Positions 47,783 through 54,703 of a DNA stretch of 64,000 nt are shown in pieces; position 1 is the stretch's first letter; the number at the start of each line of letters is the position of its first letter. Position numbers and translations under genes: made by a program. The stretch lies in contig CP147780.1 in NCBI GenBank assembly GCA_037310415.1, forward strand, positions 2,368,001 through 2,432,000, given 5' to 3'. The notes beneath the pieces are model-generated. The model was not told the origin of the DNA, ran no database searches, and saw only the letters and a program-made list of their open reading frames with translations. The DNA is from Candidatus Atabeyarchaeum deiterrae. Lineage in GTDB: Archaea; Asgardarchaeota; Atabeyarchaeia; Atabeyarchaeales; Atabeyarchaeaceae.

Positions 47783-49675
47783 TCAAAACTCGAGGTCATC
47801 AAACCTGATGATCTCATTCGTCGAACCAACCACAACGAATGTGCAGTTGATGTGGTTACCTATCGAGCATATCACTAGTTCCGTCCAGTCAATCGTTGGC
47901 ATGTTTGCCTGTACTCCATGGAGAATGCTCCAAGTCGAGTTGTATGTGGCATTGATGTAGTAGTTTGTGTTTCCTGCAACTTCGTACGACCATTTTCCTG
48001 TTATGGTTCCTCCATGAATCGAGACTCCCAAGTTTTGTTTTGACGACACCAGTGAGATGAAACTTGCGGTGGCTGCTTCAACCCCCATTTGACCAGACAT
48101 TCCTGTGACATCTTGAACCACAACATCTGATTGGTCCAAAGCGTTTACGATTCCGATATATTTCAGTTGCCAAGTGTCTCCCGTTACATAGTATACTGGC
48201 GAGAGCCACGACAGGTAGCTACTCATGTTGTAGAGAATGGGCATCTCAACTACGAACTCTCCCGCTGAAGGCTTGTAGAGTTGACTTTGTATGACATCCT
48301 TTGCCCTTGAGCCGGATAGCATGTTCGACTGTGAGACATCATAGTATCTTATTCCAGTATGGTCTGATATGAAGATCCCAGTAAGGGTTTGTTCAGTTGC
48401 ATATGGGTGCATTGATGTGAATGAGATCATTTCGTCACCATAACGGAGGAATCTAGTGTCTTCGTCCATGGCAACTCTATCGTTGCTCACTGAAATGCCT
48501 ATGAATCCTCCTGCAAATATGTCGAATGATGACCCTCTTCTTGAGGATCCCCAGTTGGTGATCTGGTTTTCAAGCCAACCTTCATCGTAAGGCTGAGGGA
48601 TCCATTTTGGCATACTTGTTAGGTTGTAACTCTCCAAGTAGGCTCCATTCACGGCATCCCAAACGTCAACGCCGAATGCTTGCATCTGCAGTGAGGGGTC
48701 AATCGAATACTTGGGTATGCAGTATACGAGCTTGCTGTCTGGTGTTTTTGTCAATATTGCACGATCGTACTTGTAGTTAGGATCCCGATAGTACGCCTGC
48801 AGCAGTATGTCTTTTCTATTGTTCAGTCCTGTTCCGCTGGCAAGCGCTAGTTCCTGATGCACAAGAAGTGGAGCCTCGTTGGGATCTGTGGCTGATAGGA
48901 CGATGTAGCCGTAAACATGTTGGTCGTATCCTGCTCCAAGCCAGTATTGCTGAACAACAGTCATCGTCCAAACGAGTTTGTCGTCCCATATTGCTATGTG
49001 AATGTTCTCGACCTGAACATTGCTGCCAAACGAAGCCATGTGCTGCTTTGCCTTGGCGTACGCAACATCAGTAGTAACGAGACGGACATCGGATGAGTTG
49101 AAAACGAAGAACGAAGGATATCCAGTGCGTTTCTCTACCATGCTGTCGAAGTAGTTGGCGTTTGCCAGAACGGCGGTCGTCCCTTGCATTACTGCGAAGG
49201 TCAGTGGAATACCAACGAGGAAGACGATGAGAAGAATTGATACGGCTTTGTGCCGTAACACCCCTGGTTTCTCATCTTCGCCTTCCCTTTTTCTGAGCGT
49301 TATTCTTCTTCTGTACCCCTCGCGAACCGTTTGGAACTCGAATCTGCTTGTGTATCTTGCAAGCAGTATGTTGAAAATCTTGATCCACACTATGGCAATA
49401 GCTATTTGCCAAGCAAGCCACTCGGATCCAACTAAGGAGAATACGATCAGCAATTCGACTACCAAGAACAATGACTTGCCAAATGAAAGTAGCTTGCCAG
49501 TAACGCTAAGGCTCTCAGGAATCACCAAAATGATAATCGAGATAATTGCTACTATGTCGAAAAATGCACCTGCACCAGTCACTGCTTTGGCGATGAGGTA
49601 GACAACAAGGAGTATCACCATGTTTATCATGAGTCCAACAAAATAGCGGTAGTAGATTGAGGTAGCTCTTGACAA
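47783..49675 (-). CDS. Hypothetical membrane protein (4-5 N-terminal TM helices + large extracellular domain)
   Basis: 630-aa ORF; hydrophobic N-terminus and a beta-rich C-terminal region with several N-x-S/T sequons. Confidence 0.8.
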   Translation of the reverse strand: MSRATSIYYRYFVGLMINMVILLVVYLIAKAVTGAGAFFDIVAIISIIILVIPESLSVTGKLLSFGKSLFLVVELLIVFSLVGSEWLAWQIAIAIVWIKIFNILLARYTSRFEFQTVREGYRRRITLRKREGEDEKPGVLRHKAVSILLIVFLVGIPLTFAVMQGTTAVLANANYFDSMVEKRTGYPSFFVFNSSDVRLVTTDVAYAKAKQHMASFGSNVQVENIHIAIWDDKLVWTMTVVQQYWLGAGYDQHVYGYIVLSATDPNEAPLLVHQELALASGTGLNNRKDILLQAYYRDPNYKYDRAILTKTPDSKLVYCIPKYSIDPSLQMQAFGVDVWDAVNGAYLESYNLTSMPKWIPQPYDEGWLENQITNWGSSRRGSSFDIFAGGFIGISVSNDRVAMDEDTRFLRYGDEMISFTSMHPYATEQTLTGIFISDHTGIRYYDVSQSNMLSGSRAKDVIQSQLYKPSAGEFVVEMPILYNMSSYLSWLSPVYYVTGDTWQLKYIGIVNALDQSDVVVQDVTGMSGQMGVEAATASFISLVSSKQNLGVSIHGGTITGKWSYEVAGNTNYYINATYNSTWSILHGVQANMPTIDWTELVICSIGNHINCTFVVVGSTNEIIRFDDLEF

Positions 49676-50004: not shown

Positions 50005-50502
50005 ATGAGCCCAGTTCCCCCTCGATTCAAAGTTAACCGGCAGGTTGAAAGAGGAATCCACGCACTCACATCAGTCTTTGTTGGGCTCGAACAATCGAGT
50101 GCATTTATGAAAATCTTTAAGACAGAGCAGAATGTGAGGAAATTTCTTGAAGGCATGAATCTGAGGATTGAAGAGGGAGACGGATACATGTACGTTGACC
50201 CCTCAATTGGACACATAATCGTGAGCAAGAAATATCTCCAAGAAGGAGAAATAGAGATGCTTTACCTAGACATTATACACGAGTCAGTTCACGTGAAACA
50301 ATGGAGTGAGGGAAATAACTTGTACGACACGCAGTACAGCTATGTCGAGAGGCCAACTGAACTTGAGGCTTATGCAGTAGTCGTTGACGAGGCCCGGCAA
50401 ATGGGAATGACTGAAGAGCAGATTGTTGATTATCTAGAGGTTCCCTGGATTTCCAAGAAGGACTTGAGGTTGCTCGCAAAGAAACTAGGGATTGAGAAGT
50501 GA
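50005..50502 (+). CDS. Putative zincin-like metallopeptidase (HExxH)
   Basis: IIHESVHVKQ plus a downstream ERPTELEAY; SD GAGGTGA. Confidence 0.7.
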   Translation: MSPVPPRFKVNRQVERGIHALTSVFVGLEQSSAFMKIFKTEQNVRKFLEGMNLRIEEGDGYMYVDPSIGHIIVSKKYLQEGEIEMLYLDIIHESVHVKQWSEGNNLYDTQYSYVERPTELEAYAVVVDEARQMGMTEEQIVDYLEVPWISKKDLRLLAKKLGIEK

Positions 50503-51017: not shown

Positions 51018-51034
51018 ATCGAAATATATAAAAG
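51018..51034 (+). promoter_or_regulatory. Putative BRE/TATA promoter for the four-gene membrane protein operon
   Basis: CGAAATATATAAAAG about 90 nt upstream of the first ATG. Confidence 0.5.
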
Positions 51035-51119
51035 GGATCAAGTAAGCATATAGGGAATGAGTCCTACCTAATAGGGGGATTCGAAAAGAAAACATGAATA
51101 ACTAGAGAGTGAACAGCGA

Positions 51120-51431
51120 ATGTCCAAGAAAGTTTCGTTCCCAGTAATGTCGCTAACACTTACCGGAGTTCTATTCATACTTGGTCTTCTTGTGCTTGCA
51201 ATGAAAACGTTCTTGTTCGTAAATCTAGGATTGCCTGCCTCTACTAGCGCGCTCATCAATGGTCTATTCGGTTTCCTTGGTGCGTTCTTCATGCTCTGGG
51301 CTCTGACAAGCATATGCCTACACCCAGACATCGACGACAGCAACGTTAAAGCAATATTCGTAACCTTCACAGTGTTCATCATAATCTTGATCTTCACATC
51401 CGTGGGCTTCTTGACTTTAGCACTATACTAA
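51120..51431 (+). CDS. Small 3-TM membrane protein, tandem paralogue 1
   Basis: MSKKVSFPVMS...FLGAFFMLWAL...HPDID; SD-like GAGAGTGA. Confidence 0.85.
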   Translation: MSKKVSFPVMSLTLTGVLFILGLLVLAMKTFLFVNLGLPASTSALINGLFGFLGAFFMLWALTSICLHPDIDDSNVKAIFVTFTVFIIILIFTSVGFLTLALY

Positions 51432-51449
51432 AAGGAGTGATCTAGAAAA

Positions 51450-51755
51450 ATGTCTCAAAAATTAGGATTTCCATACCTTGGCCTCGGAATCTCAGCTATA
51501 ATCTTCCTTATCTTTGGCATACTATTTGCTACGTTGGTCCCAATCATCTATACTCTCCTTGGTGCATCGAGTGTCGTTCTCGCCGCGTGGAGATTCATAG
51601 GCATATTCCTGACCGGATGGGCTTTGTTAAACTTCATGGTCTGCAAGGATCTACTACCAATGCAGAGACTAATCGCAGCGTTCTTTGCCTTCTTGGCACT
51701 AGTAACACTATTCATCACGCCGCCACTGGTATACCTTTCGTTCACAGTAACCTAA
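51450..51755 (+). CDS. Small 3-TM membrane protein, tandem paralogue 2 (most divergent)
   Basis: MSQKLGFP...FIGIFLTGWAL...QRLIAAFF; SD GGAGTGA. Confidence 0.85.
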   Translation: MSQKLGFPYLGLGISAIIFLIFGILFATLVPIIYTLLGASSVVLAAWRFIGIFLTGWALLNFMVCKDLLPMQRLIAAFFAFLALVTLFITPPLVYLSFTVT

Positions 51756-51847
51756 CTTCCTTAGCCATAAGGAAGTGAGGGATCCTCCAAGGAGGATGGA
51801 TAAGTAAAAAGAATAAGCAGATTCGACTAAAAAGAGAGTGATAATGA

Positions 51848-52153
51848 ATGTCCAAGAAAGTTGCGTTCCCAGTAATGTCAGCTAGTCTAACTGGAATACT
51901 CTACATACTTGCATTGCTACTCGGAACATTAGCAATCCTCGTAGATGGACTTGCATTGCCAGCAGCAACCAGCGCTTTGGTCATCGGACTATTGCTCTTC
52001 CTAGGAGCATTCTTTGGAGGCTGGGCTCTAATCAGCTTTGCACTCCACCCGGGACTCGACAACAACCAGAGATTCGTCGCAGCGCTATTCACAGCACTAC
52101 TATTGCTTGTCTTCTTCAACCACGGCGGAAACACATTCAGCATTTCGTTCTAA
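51848..52153 (+). CDS. Small 3-TM membrane protein, tandem paralogue 3
   Basis: MSKKVAFPVMS...FLGAFFGGWAL...HPGLDNNQR; SD-like GAGAGTGA. Confidence 0.85.
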   Translation: MSKKVAFPVMSASLTGILYILALLLGTLAILVDGLALPAATSALVIGLLLFLGAFFGGWALISFALHPGLDNNQRFVAALFTALLLLVFFNHGGNTFSISF

Positions 52154-52176
52154 TAGATGGAGGTTGAAACGTAGCT

Positions 52177-52470
52177 ATGTCTAAGAAAGTTGGTTTCCCA
52201 GTAATGTCAACAATGATCACGGGTTTGCTCTTTATCCTAGGATTGCTACTGACTACACTCGGAATAGTCCTAGCCGCATTGGGATTGTCTACGCTCATCC
52301 TTGGTGTTCTTTGGTTCATCGGTCTGCTGCTCTTCGGTTGGGCACTCCTAAGCTTCGGCCTCAACCCTGAGCTTGAAGACTACCAGAGAAACATAGCGTT
52401 CTTCTTTGCAGTGCTATTAGTGACATTACTCTTCGGAGTCGGCATTAGCATCTCGTTCGGTTGGATGTAA
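52177..52470 (+). CDS. Small 3-TM membrane protein, tandem paralogue 4
   Basis: MSKKVGFPVMS...FIGLLLFGWAL...NPELEDYQR; SD GGAGGTTGA. Confidence 0.85.
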   Translation: MSKKVGFPVMSTMITGLLFILGLLLTTLGIVLAALGLSTLILGVLWFIGLLLFGWALLSFGLNPELEDYQRNIAFFFAVLLVTLLFGVGISISFGWM

Positions 52471-52517
52471 GCGTCTAACCATTTACTGGGGATATAGTAT
52501 AGGCCATACCTCAGAAC

Positions 52518-52533
52518 TCTCCCCCTTTTTTTT
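52518..52533 (+). terminator. Archaeal-type oligo-T terminator of the four-gene operon
   Basis: CTCCCCCTTTTTTTT about 50 nt after the last stop codon. Confidence 0.55.
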
Positions 52534-52652
52534 GGATACTCTTATGTCGGAGAGTCGAAACAATGTACCTGAGAAATATGAGTGGCCTCTGCCAATCTGT
52601 AATACAAAGAAAAGACTTACAGTCTGCGTTTGGGTCCCTGTTTGTCTCCTGT

Positions 52653-53912
52653 TCATCGTATGTATGGTGAGCCTTTTTCAATTGTGTTGTTCAACATCGC
52701 GCTGATCTGTTTGGGCACCGTCTTGTTGTTAATGAGTAAGCTTCGCGTCTTTCTGATCAGCTTCGGGGTGTCTATTTCCATGGGGCAGACTTCTTTGCAT
52801 CTTCCACATTGGGTACAGCTAAAGGCTTGCGTTGCCACCGAGTCGAGGCCCAAGGTAAAGAGCGTCCAAGGAACCCCTAATCCACCCATATAGGTGAATT
52901 CTCCATAATCATGGGCGACCAAGTTCCATACCGGGCAATCGTACAGACACGTACCACACCTTAGGCATGTGAAGGCTTCCTTGAAGTCAGCATCTTGAGC
53001 CATTTTTCTCCTTCCGTTGTCAAGCAGGATTACGTCTATCTCGGCTGGTCCAGCTGCAGGTTTCACTGAGAGCCTTTCTATATCCGAGCTGCTAGATATT
53101 CCCATTATCTGAGTTATGTACTGAGTAGTTGCATGACCCGTTGTGTAGAGTGGCATAACCTGACAGTAGAGATTAGCCGTGTCACGATCTGGCATGACCT
53201 TGTCTATGCCTGCTATAATGATGTGTTTCTCAGGCAACGATGTGACTAACCGATCATTGCCCTCGTTCGTTACCAAGTAGACGGTTCCAGTATCAGCTGT
53301 GATTGCATTCGCGCCTGAGACAGCAACTTTGGACTTGATAGATTTCTCCCGGATGAAATCTCTTACGAAGGCAACTAAGACGTTGGGATCTGGCGGCAGT
53401 TTTCTTCCTGCAAGCTTGCTGAAGTACTCCGCGAACACTTCTTTCGGAACTGAGATAGAGACTCCAGTCGGATGAGCCGCCTTTCTGTGTGCAACTTGCA
53501 GCAGCACTGCGCCCACATCGGTTTCCCAAATCTCTATTCCGTGTTCTTCGAGGAACTCGTTCAAACCTATTTCTTCGGTTGTTAGACTCTTAACTTTTGT
53601 TACAAGTTTCTCATTGCCGATAAGCTCGAGTGTCTTGCTGCAGGCTTCATGTGCGTCCTTTGCTTGGTAGACTTTCATTCCATTTTCTTGCATGATCTCG
53701 ACGGCTTTCTTGATATTCTCTTCGAGATGGTCGAGCGCTTCTCTTCTTCGGTTCTTCAGCTCCTTTGCCAAGTCTTGGATGTTTGTCACACGTTTAAGCC
53801 ATGTTTCTTTCCTAACTCTGTAGTTGGTTATCGCTTTCTCGACAGCGGTCCGAAGGAACGGGTCGTTCGCATCCTTAAGCAACTTCTGATAATATGAATC
53901 GAAATCAGCCAT
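52653..53912 (-). CDS. LutB/YkgF-like Fe-S protein (LUD domain + 4Fe-4S ferredoxin)
   Basis: KVKSLTTEEIGLN, ETDVG, SGANAITADTG...NEGN, LLDNGR, CLRCGTCLYDCP and CTQCGRCKEVCP motifs. Confidence 0.88.
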   Translation of the reverse strand: MADFDSYYQKLLKDANDPFLRTAVEKAITNYRVRKETWLKRVTNIQDLAKELKNRRREALDHLEENIKKAVEIMQENGMKVYQAKDAHEACSKTLELIGNEKLVTKVKSLTTEEIGLNEFLEEHGIEIWETDVGAVLLQVAHRKAAHPTGVSISVPKEVFAEYFSKLAGRKLPPDPNVLVAFVRDFIREKSIKSKVAVSGANAITADTGTVYLVTNEGNDRLVTSLPEKHIIIAGIDKVMPDRDTANLYCQVMPLYTTGHATTQYITQIMGISSSSDIERLSVKPAAGPAEIDVILLDNGRRKMAQDADFKEAFTCLRCGTCLYDCPVWNLVAHDYGEFTYMGGLGVPWTLFTLGLDSVATQAFSCTQCGRCKEVCPMEIDTPKLIRKTRSLLINNKTVPKQISAMLNNTIEKGSPYIR

Positions 53913-53953
53913 TGACCTTTCTTCCTCCTTATGCAGTCAAGTCCCTCGCTTCC

Positions 53954-54703
53954 TTACCACTCTTCTTCTCCTGTCAGTCTCCTGTAGATATAGGTACTAA
54001 GATCAAGAACCTGAATCTCCTTGCCAGTCTCTGCCTCTCTTCGAGATGCGCCCACTGTTAAGTTGAACACACATGATGGGCAGGCAGTTATGAGTTTGCT
54101 CACGCCTAGGGGTTCAATATCCTTCCGAATCCTGTTTTCAGCCATCTTCACAGAGAATTCTGGTTCGATCGCAAACATCGCGCCACCAGCTCCACAACAC
54201 CTTGATTCGACTCTAGTTGCCTGGGGCTCGACTAGTTCTGCCACTCTTGCTATTACTTTCCTGGGTGCTTCATATTCTCCAGCGAGTCTCCCCAATTCAC
54301 ATGGGTCATGATACGATACTTTCTCCTTCGTCGTGTCCTTGAAGTCCAGCTTCTCTATGTTCTCTGCCAAGATCTGGGACATGTGCTGCACTTTCGGTAT
54401 TCTTAGCCCGAGTTCAGGGTATTCTAGTGCAAGGACTCTATAACAACCAGCACATTCGGTTGCGATGAGATCAACCTTAGCCGAATTGAAGGCCTGAGTA
54501 TTCTTCCTAGCGATTTTCAGTGCATTCTCTTTGTCACCCGTCAGTAGTAGCGGGTCGCCGCAGCACCATTCGTTCTCAAGCCTCTTCACACTTAGACCTA
54601 TTCTTTTCAGTAGTTCTACGTGTTTGCCAATATCTTCGGAGAAACGGGCTCTAGCGGTGCAACCAGCGAAGTATAAGACAGTCTTAGGCATTTGCGAAGG
54701 CAC
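53954..54703 (-). CDS. CCG-domain Fe-S protein (LutA/GlcF/HdrB-like)
   Basis: YFAGC, WCCG, CAGC, YHDPCELGR, RCCGAGG and TACPSC motifs. Confidence 0.88.
   Translation of the reverse strand: MPSQMPKTVLYFAGCTARARFSEDIGKHVELLKRIGLSVKRLENEWCCGDPLLLTGDKENALKIARKNTQAFNSAKVDLIATECAGCYRVLALEYPELGLRIPKVQHMSQILAENIEKLDFKDTTKEKVSYHDPCELGRLAGEYEAPRKVIARVAELVEPQATRVESRCCGAGGAMFAIEPEFSVKMAENRIRKDIEPLGVSKLITACPSCVFNLTVGASRREAETGKEIQVLDLSTYIYRRLTGEEEW

Follow-up and report, generated by a model that had tools for sequence, protein, structure and literature searches.

A 64,000-nucleotide stretch of the Candidatus Atabeyarchaeum deiterrae chromosome (contig CP147780.1, positions 2,368,001 to 2,432,000; hereafter the window) carries an operon of four small genes, each encoding a membrane protein of ∼100 amino acids. 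Sequence comparisons indicate that the four proteins and their operon constitute an undescribed family specific to Atabeyarchaeia. The operon is represented in environmental RNA as a discrete, extremely abundant unit of ∼1.47 kb, and its simplest reading is as one primary transcript. The proteins are predicted to be three-helix membrane bundles that may work together as a hetero-oligomeric complex. The host genome is the complete chromosome of Atabeyarchaeia-2, a single contig of 2,756,679 bp, and is one of the two genomes that have been completed for Atabeyarchaeia from wetland soil in California (PMC11291895).

An operon of four diverged membrane protein genes

The open reading frame (ORF) listing contains four plus-strand genes within positions 51120–52470 (chromosome positions 2,419,120–2,420,470), and the encoded proteins have 103, 101, 101, and 97 amino acids. 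An earlier prediction made from the DNA sequence alone (hereafter the original prediction) had described exactly these co-oriented ORFs, each with its own Shine–Dalgarno (SD) sequence. We indeed find an SD-like purine tract 5–12 nt before every one of the four start codons. The transcript unit includes neither an enzyme gene nor an ATPase gene, also as described, and the four paralogs are its entire content.

The four proteins can be aligned end to end with 24%–48% identity (24%, 48%, and 41% for genes 2, 3, and 4 versus gene 1). The alignment has 16 invariant columns, among them M1, S2, K4, F7, P8, and the WAL motif. The motifs named by the original prediction are readily recognized: MS(K/Q)K(V/L)(S/G/A)FP and F(L/I)G-x5-WAL are present in all four proteins, the products of genes 3 and 4 have the whole HP..QR loop, which had been assigned to most of the four, and those of genes 1 and 2 have part of it.

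A discrete and abundant transcript

The ends of the operon RNA can be located from primer and adaptor sequences. In the Nanopore run X1, the strand-switch primer tail directly abuts position 51059, and also a G-run at 51076; the orientation of the primer establishes that the RNA of the operon is plus sense. An Illumina adaptor tail in run X5 abuts position 51075, and a contig from X1 begins at 51076. At the other end, contigs from X1 and X2 stop at 52537 and 52540, right past a run of eight T residues (T8), and JGI contigs stop at ...GAACTCTCCCC, immediately ahead of the T-run. The distance from 51059 to the T-run is 1467 nt. The TATA-like box and the T8 run that had been proposed as promoter and terminator therefore both border real RNA ends (51059 or 51072–51076 on one side, 52537–52540 on the other).

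The elements at the 5′ end are retained in relatives. The promoter sequence GAAATATATAAAAG is kept in Atabeyarchaeia-1 and in the isolate LC30, and the 5′ hairpin GAGTCC...GGGGGATTC is kept in all genomic loci that reach that far (the window, L071, L007, and L072) as well as in contig L063. Many RNA contigs begin 13–17 nt inside the primary start, at the G-run. This pattern points to processing of the 5′ end or else to an effect of the hairpin on the libraries. The genome has no second copy of the leader motif, and therefore no co-regulated partner genes can be named from it.

Contigs that contain the four-gene unit (the cassette) were recovered from 12 peat and wetland datasets. The 44 complete ones have median lengths of 48 nt for the leader, 47.5 nt for the trailer, and 1464 nt in total, and most of them start at (C/T)AGGGGGATTCG. 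Nearly all recovered contigs are 1.35–1.58 kb long and consist of the cassette alone. Random DNA contig ends would not begin and stop at a common leader and a common T-run, and for this reason we regard these contigs as assembled RNAs.

The wetland metatranscriptomes contain 96% (X1, Nanopore) and 89% (X2, Illumina) of the sequence words of the stretch searched, and peat metatranscriptomes contain relatives. RNA runs were mapped over 18 kb around the operon, where uncovered parts are not evidence of silence. Among X2 contigs identical to this genome, those of the operon have depths of 945.6 and 888.3, and five contigs of neighboring genes have depths of 5.3–18.7. Because expression is poorly measured by contig depth and this same gene was used to select the runs, the resulting ∼50- to 180-fold level of operon mRNA over its neighbors is strong but not quantitative evidence. 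The gene for EF-1α served as an independent control. It yielded only eight clusters for the clade (at least 85% identity), on contigs of 2.2–98 kb, none of them mRNA-sized. In contrast, more than 40 cassette variants were assembled full length from RNA. These observations indicate that the operon is very strongly expressed in metatranscriptomes. Because the ends are shared and no internal promoter-like box is present in the operon, a single primary transcript is the simplest interpretation.

An orphan family of one Asgard lineage

Atabeyarchaeia-1 (CP147779.1, 2,808,651 bp) also has the cassette. Exactly four tandem copies are present in 3 of 3 genomes of the host family, and there is no credible match in any of ∼396 other Asgard genomes. 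When one genome each of 185,579 prokaryotic species was searched, only two relatives carried the cassette. An exhaustive HMMER profile search of 1.84 billion representative proteins returned only 16 clusters, all of 54–130 amino acids, and a word-indexed search of 5.8 billion clusters found 112, almost all of 87–121 amino acids. No fused or longer forms of the family were found, and 2.9 million viral contigs include no relatives.

Searches of family and structure databases were similarly barren. There is no significant match to the family in Pfam or NCBIfam, nothing below E 0.03 in PHROGs or PADLOC, and only a designed coiled coil (E 0.12) in a sequence profile search of the PDB. A Foldseek search of the PDB with the gene 3 model gave no match at E ≤ 0.001. 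With the same model, a wide VIA-align search reached a best Z of 10.2, and the matches listed are soluble three-helix bundles of a generic kind (MIT domains and designed proteins, for example), which is uninformative. A shape search of the ESM Atlas returned mixed unnamed clusters, the nearest including DUF202, and is likewise uninformative as to identity. Language-model look-alikes are unnamed small membrane proteins with similarities of 0.87–0.90, within the chance range. The published description of both complete genomes does not mention the four genes (PMC11291895).

The narrow distribution and the lack of matches in family databases together indicate a true orphan of one Asgard lineage. 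The original prediction had called the proteins undescribed, and our searches of Pfam, NCBIfam, PHROGs, PADLOC, and PDB sequences bear this out, since no confident match to a characterized family emerged.

One additional protein deserves mention. Genome G258, from another Asgard family, encodes a 157-amino acid membrane protein (L010, 535–1008) whose last two helices and loop (..LSFALNDKFDEKARR..) resemble the second transmembrane (TM) helix, loop 2, and TM3 of the operon proteins with an E-value of 9.7e-4. This value is too weak to admit it to the family; the protein is either a very distant relative or a chance match.

Paralogs in a fixed order

Among the 54 metagenomic loci recovered, gene number (four), order, and spacing are constant wherever the locus is complete. 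Besides that of the window, 46 cassettes have this four-gene content and order, which, with the purifying selection described below, speaks against chance ORFs. Even the most divergent DNA contig, which carries the NCBI label Njordarchaeota, retains four genes, of 116, 94, 99, and 97 amino acids. The clustering of the genes is thus conserved in related genomes.

In a maximum-likelihood tree of 186 sequences, the genes fall into four orthogroups according to position, with the minimum of three label changes. The bipartition that separates genes 1 and 3 from genes 2 and 4 has a support of 96. Moreover, loop 1 of genes 1 and 3 is four residues longer than that of genes 2 and 4, a shared indel, and the 5′ untranslated region (UTR) resembles the 92-nt spacer preceding gene 3 (an equal or higher score was obtained in 4 of 500 shuffles). 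Together, these three features indicate an ancient tandem duplication of a hairpin-A-B unit, which would have produced an A-B-A′-B′ array before the sampled lineages split, with no copy lost since. Gene 3 evolves slowest and genes 1 and 2 evolve fastest. The proposal that these are maintained paralogs rather than products of a recent amplification agrees with the four position-specific orthogroups and the fixed order, which also mark the four genes as non-redundant.

Predicted fold, topology, and selection

AlphaFold2 with the family alignment models the gene 3 protein with a predicted local distance difference test score (pLDDT) of 91.3 and a predicted template modeling score (pTM) of 0.79, placing helices at residues 12–33, 39–65, and 72–92. 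The gene 2 protein has the same plan (pLDDT 80.5; helices 12–37, 41–63, and 70–88). The three TM helices fill the whole protein, leaving tails of 9–13 residues, and there is neither a globular domain nor a two-helix hairpin. The models therefore support with confidence a predicted three-helix TM bundle, in agreement with the approximately three TM helices that had been read from the sequence.

Charged residues are distributed very unevenly. The N-tail and loop 2 have a mean of 2.7–3.3 lysine and arginine residues per protein, compared with 0–0.5 for loop 1 and the C-tail, and acidic residues are almost confined to the N-tail/loop 2 side. By the positive-inside rule, the N terminus and loop 2 are predicted to be cytoplasmic and loop 1 and the C-tail to lie outside, which would give all four proteins a parallel orientation. 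The outer face is very short, variable, and essentially uncharged, and loop 1 bears insertions in divergent members.

All four genes are under purifying selection (whole-gene dN/dS of ∼0.17–0.31, Jukes–Cantor corrected), and the constraint differs among regions of the proteins (Table 1). The helices contain many Gly, Ala, Ser, and Thr residues but no conserved charged or pore-lining residue. They do have one invariant Trp, in TM2, several conserved Ser/Thr residues, and, in three of the four paralogs, a conserved His at the cytoplasmic end of TM2. Because the N-tail and loop 2 are the most conserved regions and neither the outer face nor the helices have conserved charge, the functional surface looks to be the cytoplasmic face. 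The membrane core appears suited to tight packing rather than to a hydrophilic pathway.

A hetero-oligomeric membrane complex as the favored interpretation

We favor the interpretation that the four proteins form an obligate hetero-oligomeric, very abundant complex that has a structural, organizing, or docking role in the cytoplasmic membrane, and we judge the chances that this is correct to be about even. A hetero-oligomer is suggested because the genes are never found apart, their order is fixed, each has its own translation signals on a shared message, and the orthogroup identities have been kept. A membrane assembly of this kind had been proposed originally, and it still accounts most simply for the constant joint occurrence of the genes and for their one common mRNA. 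We prefer a bulk structural or docking role to that of a transporter, an enzyme, or a pilus because the message is so abundant and conserved charged, pore, or catalytic residues are lacking.

If this hypothesis is true, then A, B, A′, and B′ would be joined at a constant ratio in an integral-membrane hetero-oligomer. The complex would act through its conserved, charged cytoplasmic face, made up of the MSKKVxFPVMS tail and the LHPxL(D/E)xxQR loop, and would have a minimal outer face that bears no charge and can vary freely. The N-tails, with their lysines, and loop 2, which is acidic, might clasp adjacent subunits or might offer a platform to a cytoplasmic partner, while the helices, rich in small residues, would pack tightly in the membrane. 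A bolder proposal is that the proteins form the dominant cytoplasmic-membrane assembly of Atabeyarchaeia, a ring or lattice A-B-A′-B′ "proteolipid" complex undescribed in any organism, whose cytoplasmic face docks, for example, Asgard actin/gelsolin or ESCRT. We consider so specific a picture rather doubtful.

Several points weigh against a structural complex. There is no direct evidence of contact between the proteins, and their abundance is deduced from RNA only. Contigs that span the four genes are not strict proof of a single transcript. The absence of conserved polar residues in the membrane opposes a hydrophilic pore but not every transport mechanism, and small heterodimeric transporters are typically encoded as tandem paralogs with three or four TM helices each. 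In part, therefore, "structural" is a diagnosis by exclusion. A prediction of the four-chain complex with family alignments scored 0.01 against a mark of 0.32, a result that counts neither way.

Two well-known systems are instructive as analogies. The purple-bacterial light-harvesting α and β proteins (pufBA and pucBA) are tandem small paralogs that form abundant (αβ)n assemblies and are encoded by stable, abundant, hairpin-bounded mRNAs. The resemblance to tandem small membrane paralogs on an abundant mRNA with intercistronic hairpins is one of analogy only, not homology: The light-harvesting proteins have a single TM helix and bind pigment via an intramembrane His, whereas the operon proteins have three TM helices, have no intramembrane ligand residues, and come from dark anoxic soil. 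Ihomp1 (Imp1227), the dominant small helical protein of the Ignicoccus outer membrane, is a pore-forming protein of ∼6 kDa encoded by a single gene. It is also a tiny, very hydrophobic, helical, lineage-restricted orphan, and it is a major membrane constituent that forms stable oligomers. In contrast to this single outer-membrane gene, the operon encodes four paralogs of ∼11 kDa, presumably in the cytoplasmic membrane, and no sequence relation is expected.

Alternative explanations

Every known family that we considered seriously either fails at least one testable defining feature or stays open at the level of fold. The alternative that we take most seriously is that the proteins are three-TM units of a small-solute channel or transporter, comparable to SemiSWEET or MPC dimers or to a Vtc1/DUF202 ring, with A/B and A′/B′ as heteromeric halves. 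We consider this unlikely but by no means negligible. Units of ∼100 amino acids with three TM helices in tandem paralogous pairs would fit such a function, as would the invariant TM2 Trp and the several conserved Ser/Thr residues. However, the helices have no conserved charged or strongly polar residue, and MtN3/PQ-loop, MPC, DUF202, SMR, and CrcB families give no Pfam match even at E ≤ 10. The closest parallel is with Vtc1/DUF202 (YidH-YidG) and the TM ring of the VTC polyphosphate channel, which consist of up-down-up three-TM units of ∼100 amino acids, with paralogous subunits in a hetero-oligomer; the operon proteins are predicted to be units of this kind and may assemble in a similar way. 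The nearest ESM Atlas shapes include DUF202 (TM-score 0.71–0.76), and the Vtc1 TM chain 9umg_F is matched with Z 8.5, but these scores are within the chance range of generic helical bundles; Z values of 8–10 lie under the tool's threshold of ∼13 for such bundles. Unlike Vtc1/DUF202, the operon proteins do not match PF02656 at E ≤ 10, lack the DUF202 N-terminal motif and conserved basic pore residues, and are not encoded with a cytoplasmic catalytic partner. For SemiSWEET, PQ-loop, and MPC proteins, PF03083, PF04193, and PF03650 give no match at E ≤ 10 and there is no Pro-Gln in TM1; these proteins are not among the matches listed by Foldseek or VIA-align, which does not exclude the triple-helix-bundle fold. 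SMR (EbrAB, YkkCD) and Fluc (CrcB) proteins are also encoded by tandem paralogous genes of ∼100–120 amino acids and are obligate heteromers. They differ in having four TM helices, opposite topologies, and a membrane Glu (SMR) or a Phe-box and Na+ site (Fluc), whereas the operon proteins have three TM helices, the same N-in charge bias in all four, no such residues, and no match to PF00893 (SMR) or PF02537 (CrcB) at E ≤ 10. High expression could reflect high-flux export in a fermenting syntroph, for instance of organic acids, an idea to which we assign the same small likelihood, but an mRNA level ∼50–180 times that of neighboring genes is unusual for a transporter.

The remaining alternatives are less probable still. 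The proteins might belong, as membrane anchors or accessory subunits, to a redox or energy-converting complex whose genes lie elsewhere, such as one with LutB-like/CCG proteins or a group 4 hydrogenase. Two minus-strand genes immediately downstream (52653–54703) converge on the operon: One is LutB-like (LUD domain and 4Fe-4S), and the other encodes a CCG-domain protein. All DNA contigs of the clade, even the most divergent, have this pair beside the operon, and Atabeyarchaeia-1 and Atabeyarchaeia-2 share 85% and 77% identity in the two genes. Proteins with CCG domains are frequently docked on partners in the membrane, HdrDE and DsrMK being examples, and the His at the cytoplasmic end of TM2 would suit such an arrangement. 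But the operon has a stable syntenic chromosomal position in all genomes, and because synteny extends over the entire region in the few genomes available, the adjacency carries little weight. LutB homologs in four other Asgard genomes from three families have no small hydrophobic neighbors. The LutB/CCG genes also have no RNA cover in the run where the operon has a depth of ∼900, a weak observation since contigs show presence only. There are no heme-type His pairs or Cys motifs in the helices, and neither Pfam nor NCBIfam reveals similarity to the small subunits of Mrp, Mbh, Ech, or Nuo (NuoK, NuoA, MrpC/F/G), with MrpG chains appearing in Foldseek only at E 3.6–3.8; the four genes are not located in a multi-subunit antiporter or hydrogenase operon. 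A role as redox anchor is quite improbable on this evidence. We find it harder yet to credit that the proteins are pilin-like, with an A24 peptidase cutting after Gly/Ser/Ala6 and the mature FPVMS... chains forming a lipid-associated filament that is type IV-like or VirB2/CedA1-like. Archaeal type IV pilins and archaellins do share a short lysine-bearing leader, a small residue before a hydrophobic helix, and the very high expression typical of major pilins: Position 6 is Gly, Ser, or Ala in ∼95% of sequences, with a hydrophobic helix next. The genome has one A24 prepilin-peptidase homolog (G000:C1:542782–543099, PF01478, 36.6 bits), which is necessary but not specific, and no Pilin_N (PF07790) protein was detected in it. 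The class III prepilin site that had been suggested nevertheless does not hold. Its consensus needs Lys or Arg at −2, where V/L/M/F/A/T is present in 111 of 111 sequences; position −1 is E, Q, K, or V in some members; and divergent gene 2 orthologs have an uncharged three-residue leader or no FP motif. Nor does the architecture agree with the pilin-like or VirB2-like subunits originally envisaged. Type IV pilins have one helix and a globular domain, and VirB2/TraA/CedA1 pilins have a two-helix hairpin and a linked VirB4/CedB-type ATPase, whereas the operon proteins have three TM helices and no globular domain. No PilB/FlaI, PilC/FlaJ, or VirB4/CedB-type gene is present in the syntenic 16–20 kb (window and L007), the rest of the genome not having been searched for these genes, including CedB. 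Furthermore, the conserved N-tail shows purifying selection at the protein level and, with loop 2, forms part of the face of the mature protein. Finally, the notion that the genes are cargo of a mobile element, virus, or defense system, for example as a holin-like or abortive-infection membrane effector, is close to refuted. Small three-TM proteins are typical holins, and there are weak matches to PADLOC "2TM effector" and PycTM profiles (E 0.07–0.13) and to one PHROG of unknown function (E 0.035). These do not outweigh the stable syntenic position, the absence of relatives among the viral contigs, the very high in situ expression over many samples, and the purifying selection on four fixed paralogs.

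RNA elements and neighboring genes

The positions of the features of the operon are given in Table 1. The core GGAUCCUCC..GGAGGAU of the hairpin in the gene 2–3 spacer is present in 42 of 42 distinct spacers. A second hairpin adjoins it at 51755–51776 and varies among lineages. One arm of the spacer hairpin resembles the anti-SD tail of 16S rRNA, and the other resembles an SD. The hairpin may be a processing or stability element, or it may be a relic of the duplicated 5′ leader. RNAalifold found no consensus structure for the gene 2–3 spacers because their alignment is gappy; the core is kept in sequence, and covariation is not demonstrated. We also considered a 5′–3′ "panhandle" formed by GGGGGAUUCG and GAACUCUCCCC and rejected it, as its duplex energies are no better than those of shuffled sequences (z of 0.09 to −1.1).

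Table 1. Features of the operon and selection on regions of the encoded proteins
Feature	Positions	Strand	Description
TATA-like promoter box	51025–51033	+	TATATAAAA, with purine-rich GAAA ahead; 26–34 nt upstream of the mapped 5′ end at 51059
Main mRNA 5′ end and 5′-terminal hairpin	51059–51082	+	GAGUCCU...GGGAUUC; hairpin predicted; end from Nanopore primer tail
Leader	51072–51119	+	Conserved; second 5′-end cluster at G-run 51074–51078; RNA-derived contig starts at 51072–51076
SD-like tract of gene 1	51105–51112	+	GAGAGTGA
Gene 1 (A)	51120–51431	+	103 amino acids, three-TM protein; orthogroup monophyletic, support 100; dN/dS by region 0.08–0.80
SD-like tract of gene 2	51434–51441	+	GGAGTGAT
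Gene 2 (B)	51450–51755	+	101 amino acids, three-TM protein, paralog diverging most; orthogroup monophyletic, support 99
Hairpin in 92-nt gene 2–3 spacer	51782–51797	+	Arms GAUCCUCC / GGAGGAU; fold z = −2.84
SD-like tract of gene 3	51834–51842	+	GAGAGTGAT
Gene 3 (A′)	51848–52153	+	101 amino acids, three-TM protein, paralog evolving slowest; 74% mean column identity
SD-like tract of gene 4	52159–52164	+	GGAGGT
Gene 4 (B′)	52177–52470	+	97 amino acids, three-TM protein
3′ stem, T8 run, and RNA 3′ ends	52488–52540	+	GGGGA...UCCCC stem (fold prediction); T8 at 52526–52533; ends at 52537–52540
N-tail (residues 1–11)			dN/dS 0.09–0.25
Loop 2			dN/dS 0.07–0.17
TM helices			dN/dS 0.15–0.37
Loop 1 and C-tail			dN/dS 0.31–0.80

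The first 11 codons of genes 1, 3, and 4 (51120–51152, 51848–51880, and 52177–52209) have a synonymous diversity (pS) of 0.30–0.39 versus ∼0.6 elsewhere. This low value hints at an RNA-level constraint on translation start or at gene conversion between the paralogs.

A conserved ORF of 165 amino acids upstream (50005–50502, plus strand) is not part of the operon transcript. It has 58% identity in Atabeyarchaeia-1 and L007 and is also present in the divergent contig. It includes an HESVH motif of the HExxH type, belongs to no Pfam family, and may encode a small metallopeptidase. A 630-amino acid ORF (47783–49675, minus strand) has N-terminal hydrophobic segments, no Pfam match, and low-level transcription in X2. 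It has no counterpart at this location in Atabeyarchaeia-1 or L007, the latter having an SBP_bac_5 gene, and it marks a variable spot in the syntenic region.

Implications for Asgard biology

To our knowledge, almost nothing is known about the membrane composition of Asgard archaea, which are studied as the closest prokaryotic relatives of eukaryotes. The link between the operon and the larger question of Asgard cell architecture is still an inference. Since the operon is small (four genes, 1.47 kb), it can be tested directly in experiments.

The operon is the most conspicuous transcript seen in the window and comes from a whole class of Asgard archaea, and its relatives assemble full length from peat and wetland metatranscriptomes. 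Its transcript is a sensitive marker of the activity of Atabeyarchaeia in situ, and for genetic work on Asgard archaea in the future, the promoter, leader, and hairpins together are a candidate module for strong expression. Should the abundance of the proteins match that of their RNA, they would be a principal membrane component of Atabeyarchaeia cells that has been overlooked by annotation centered on metabolism.

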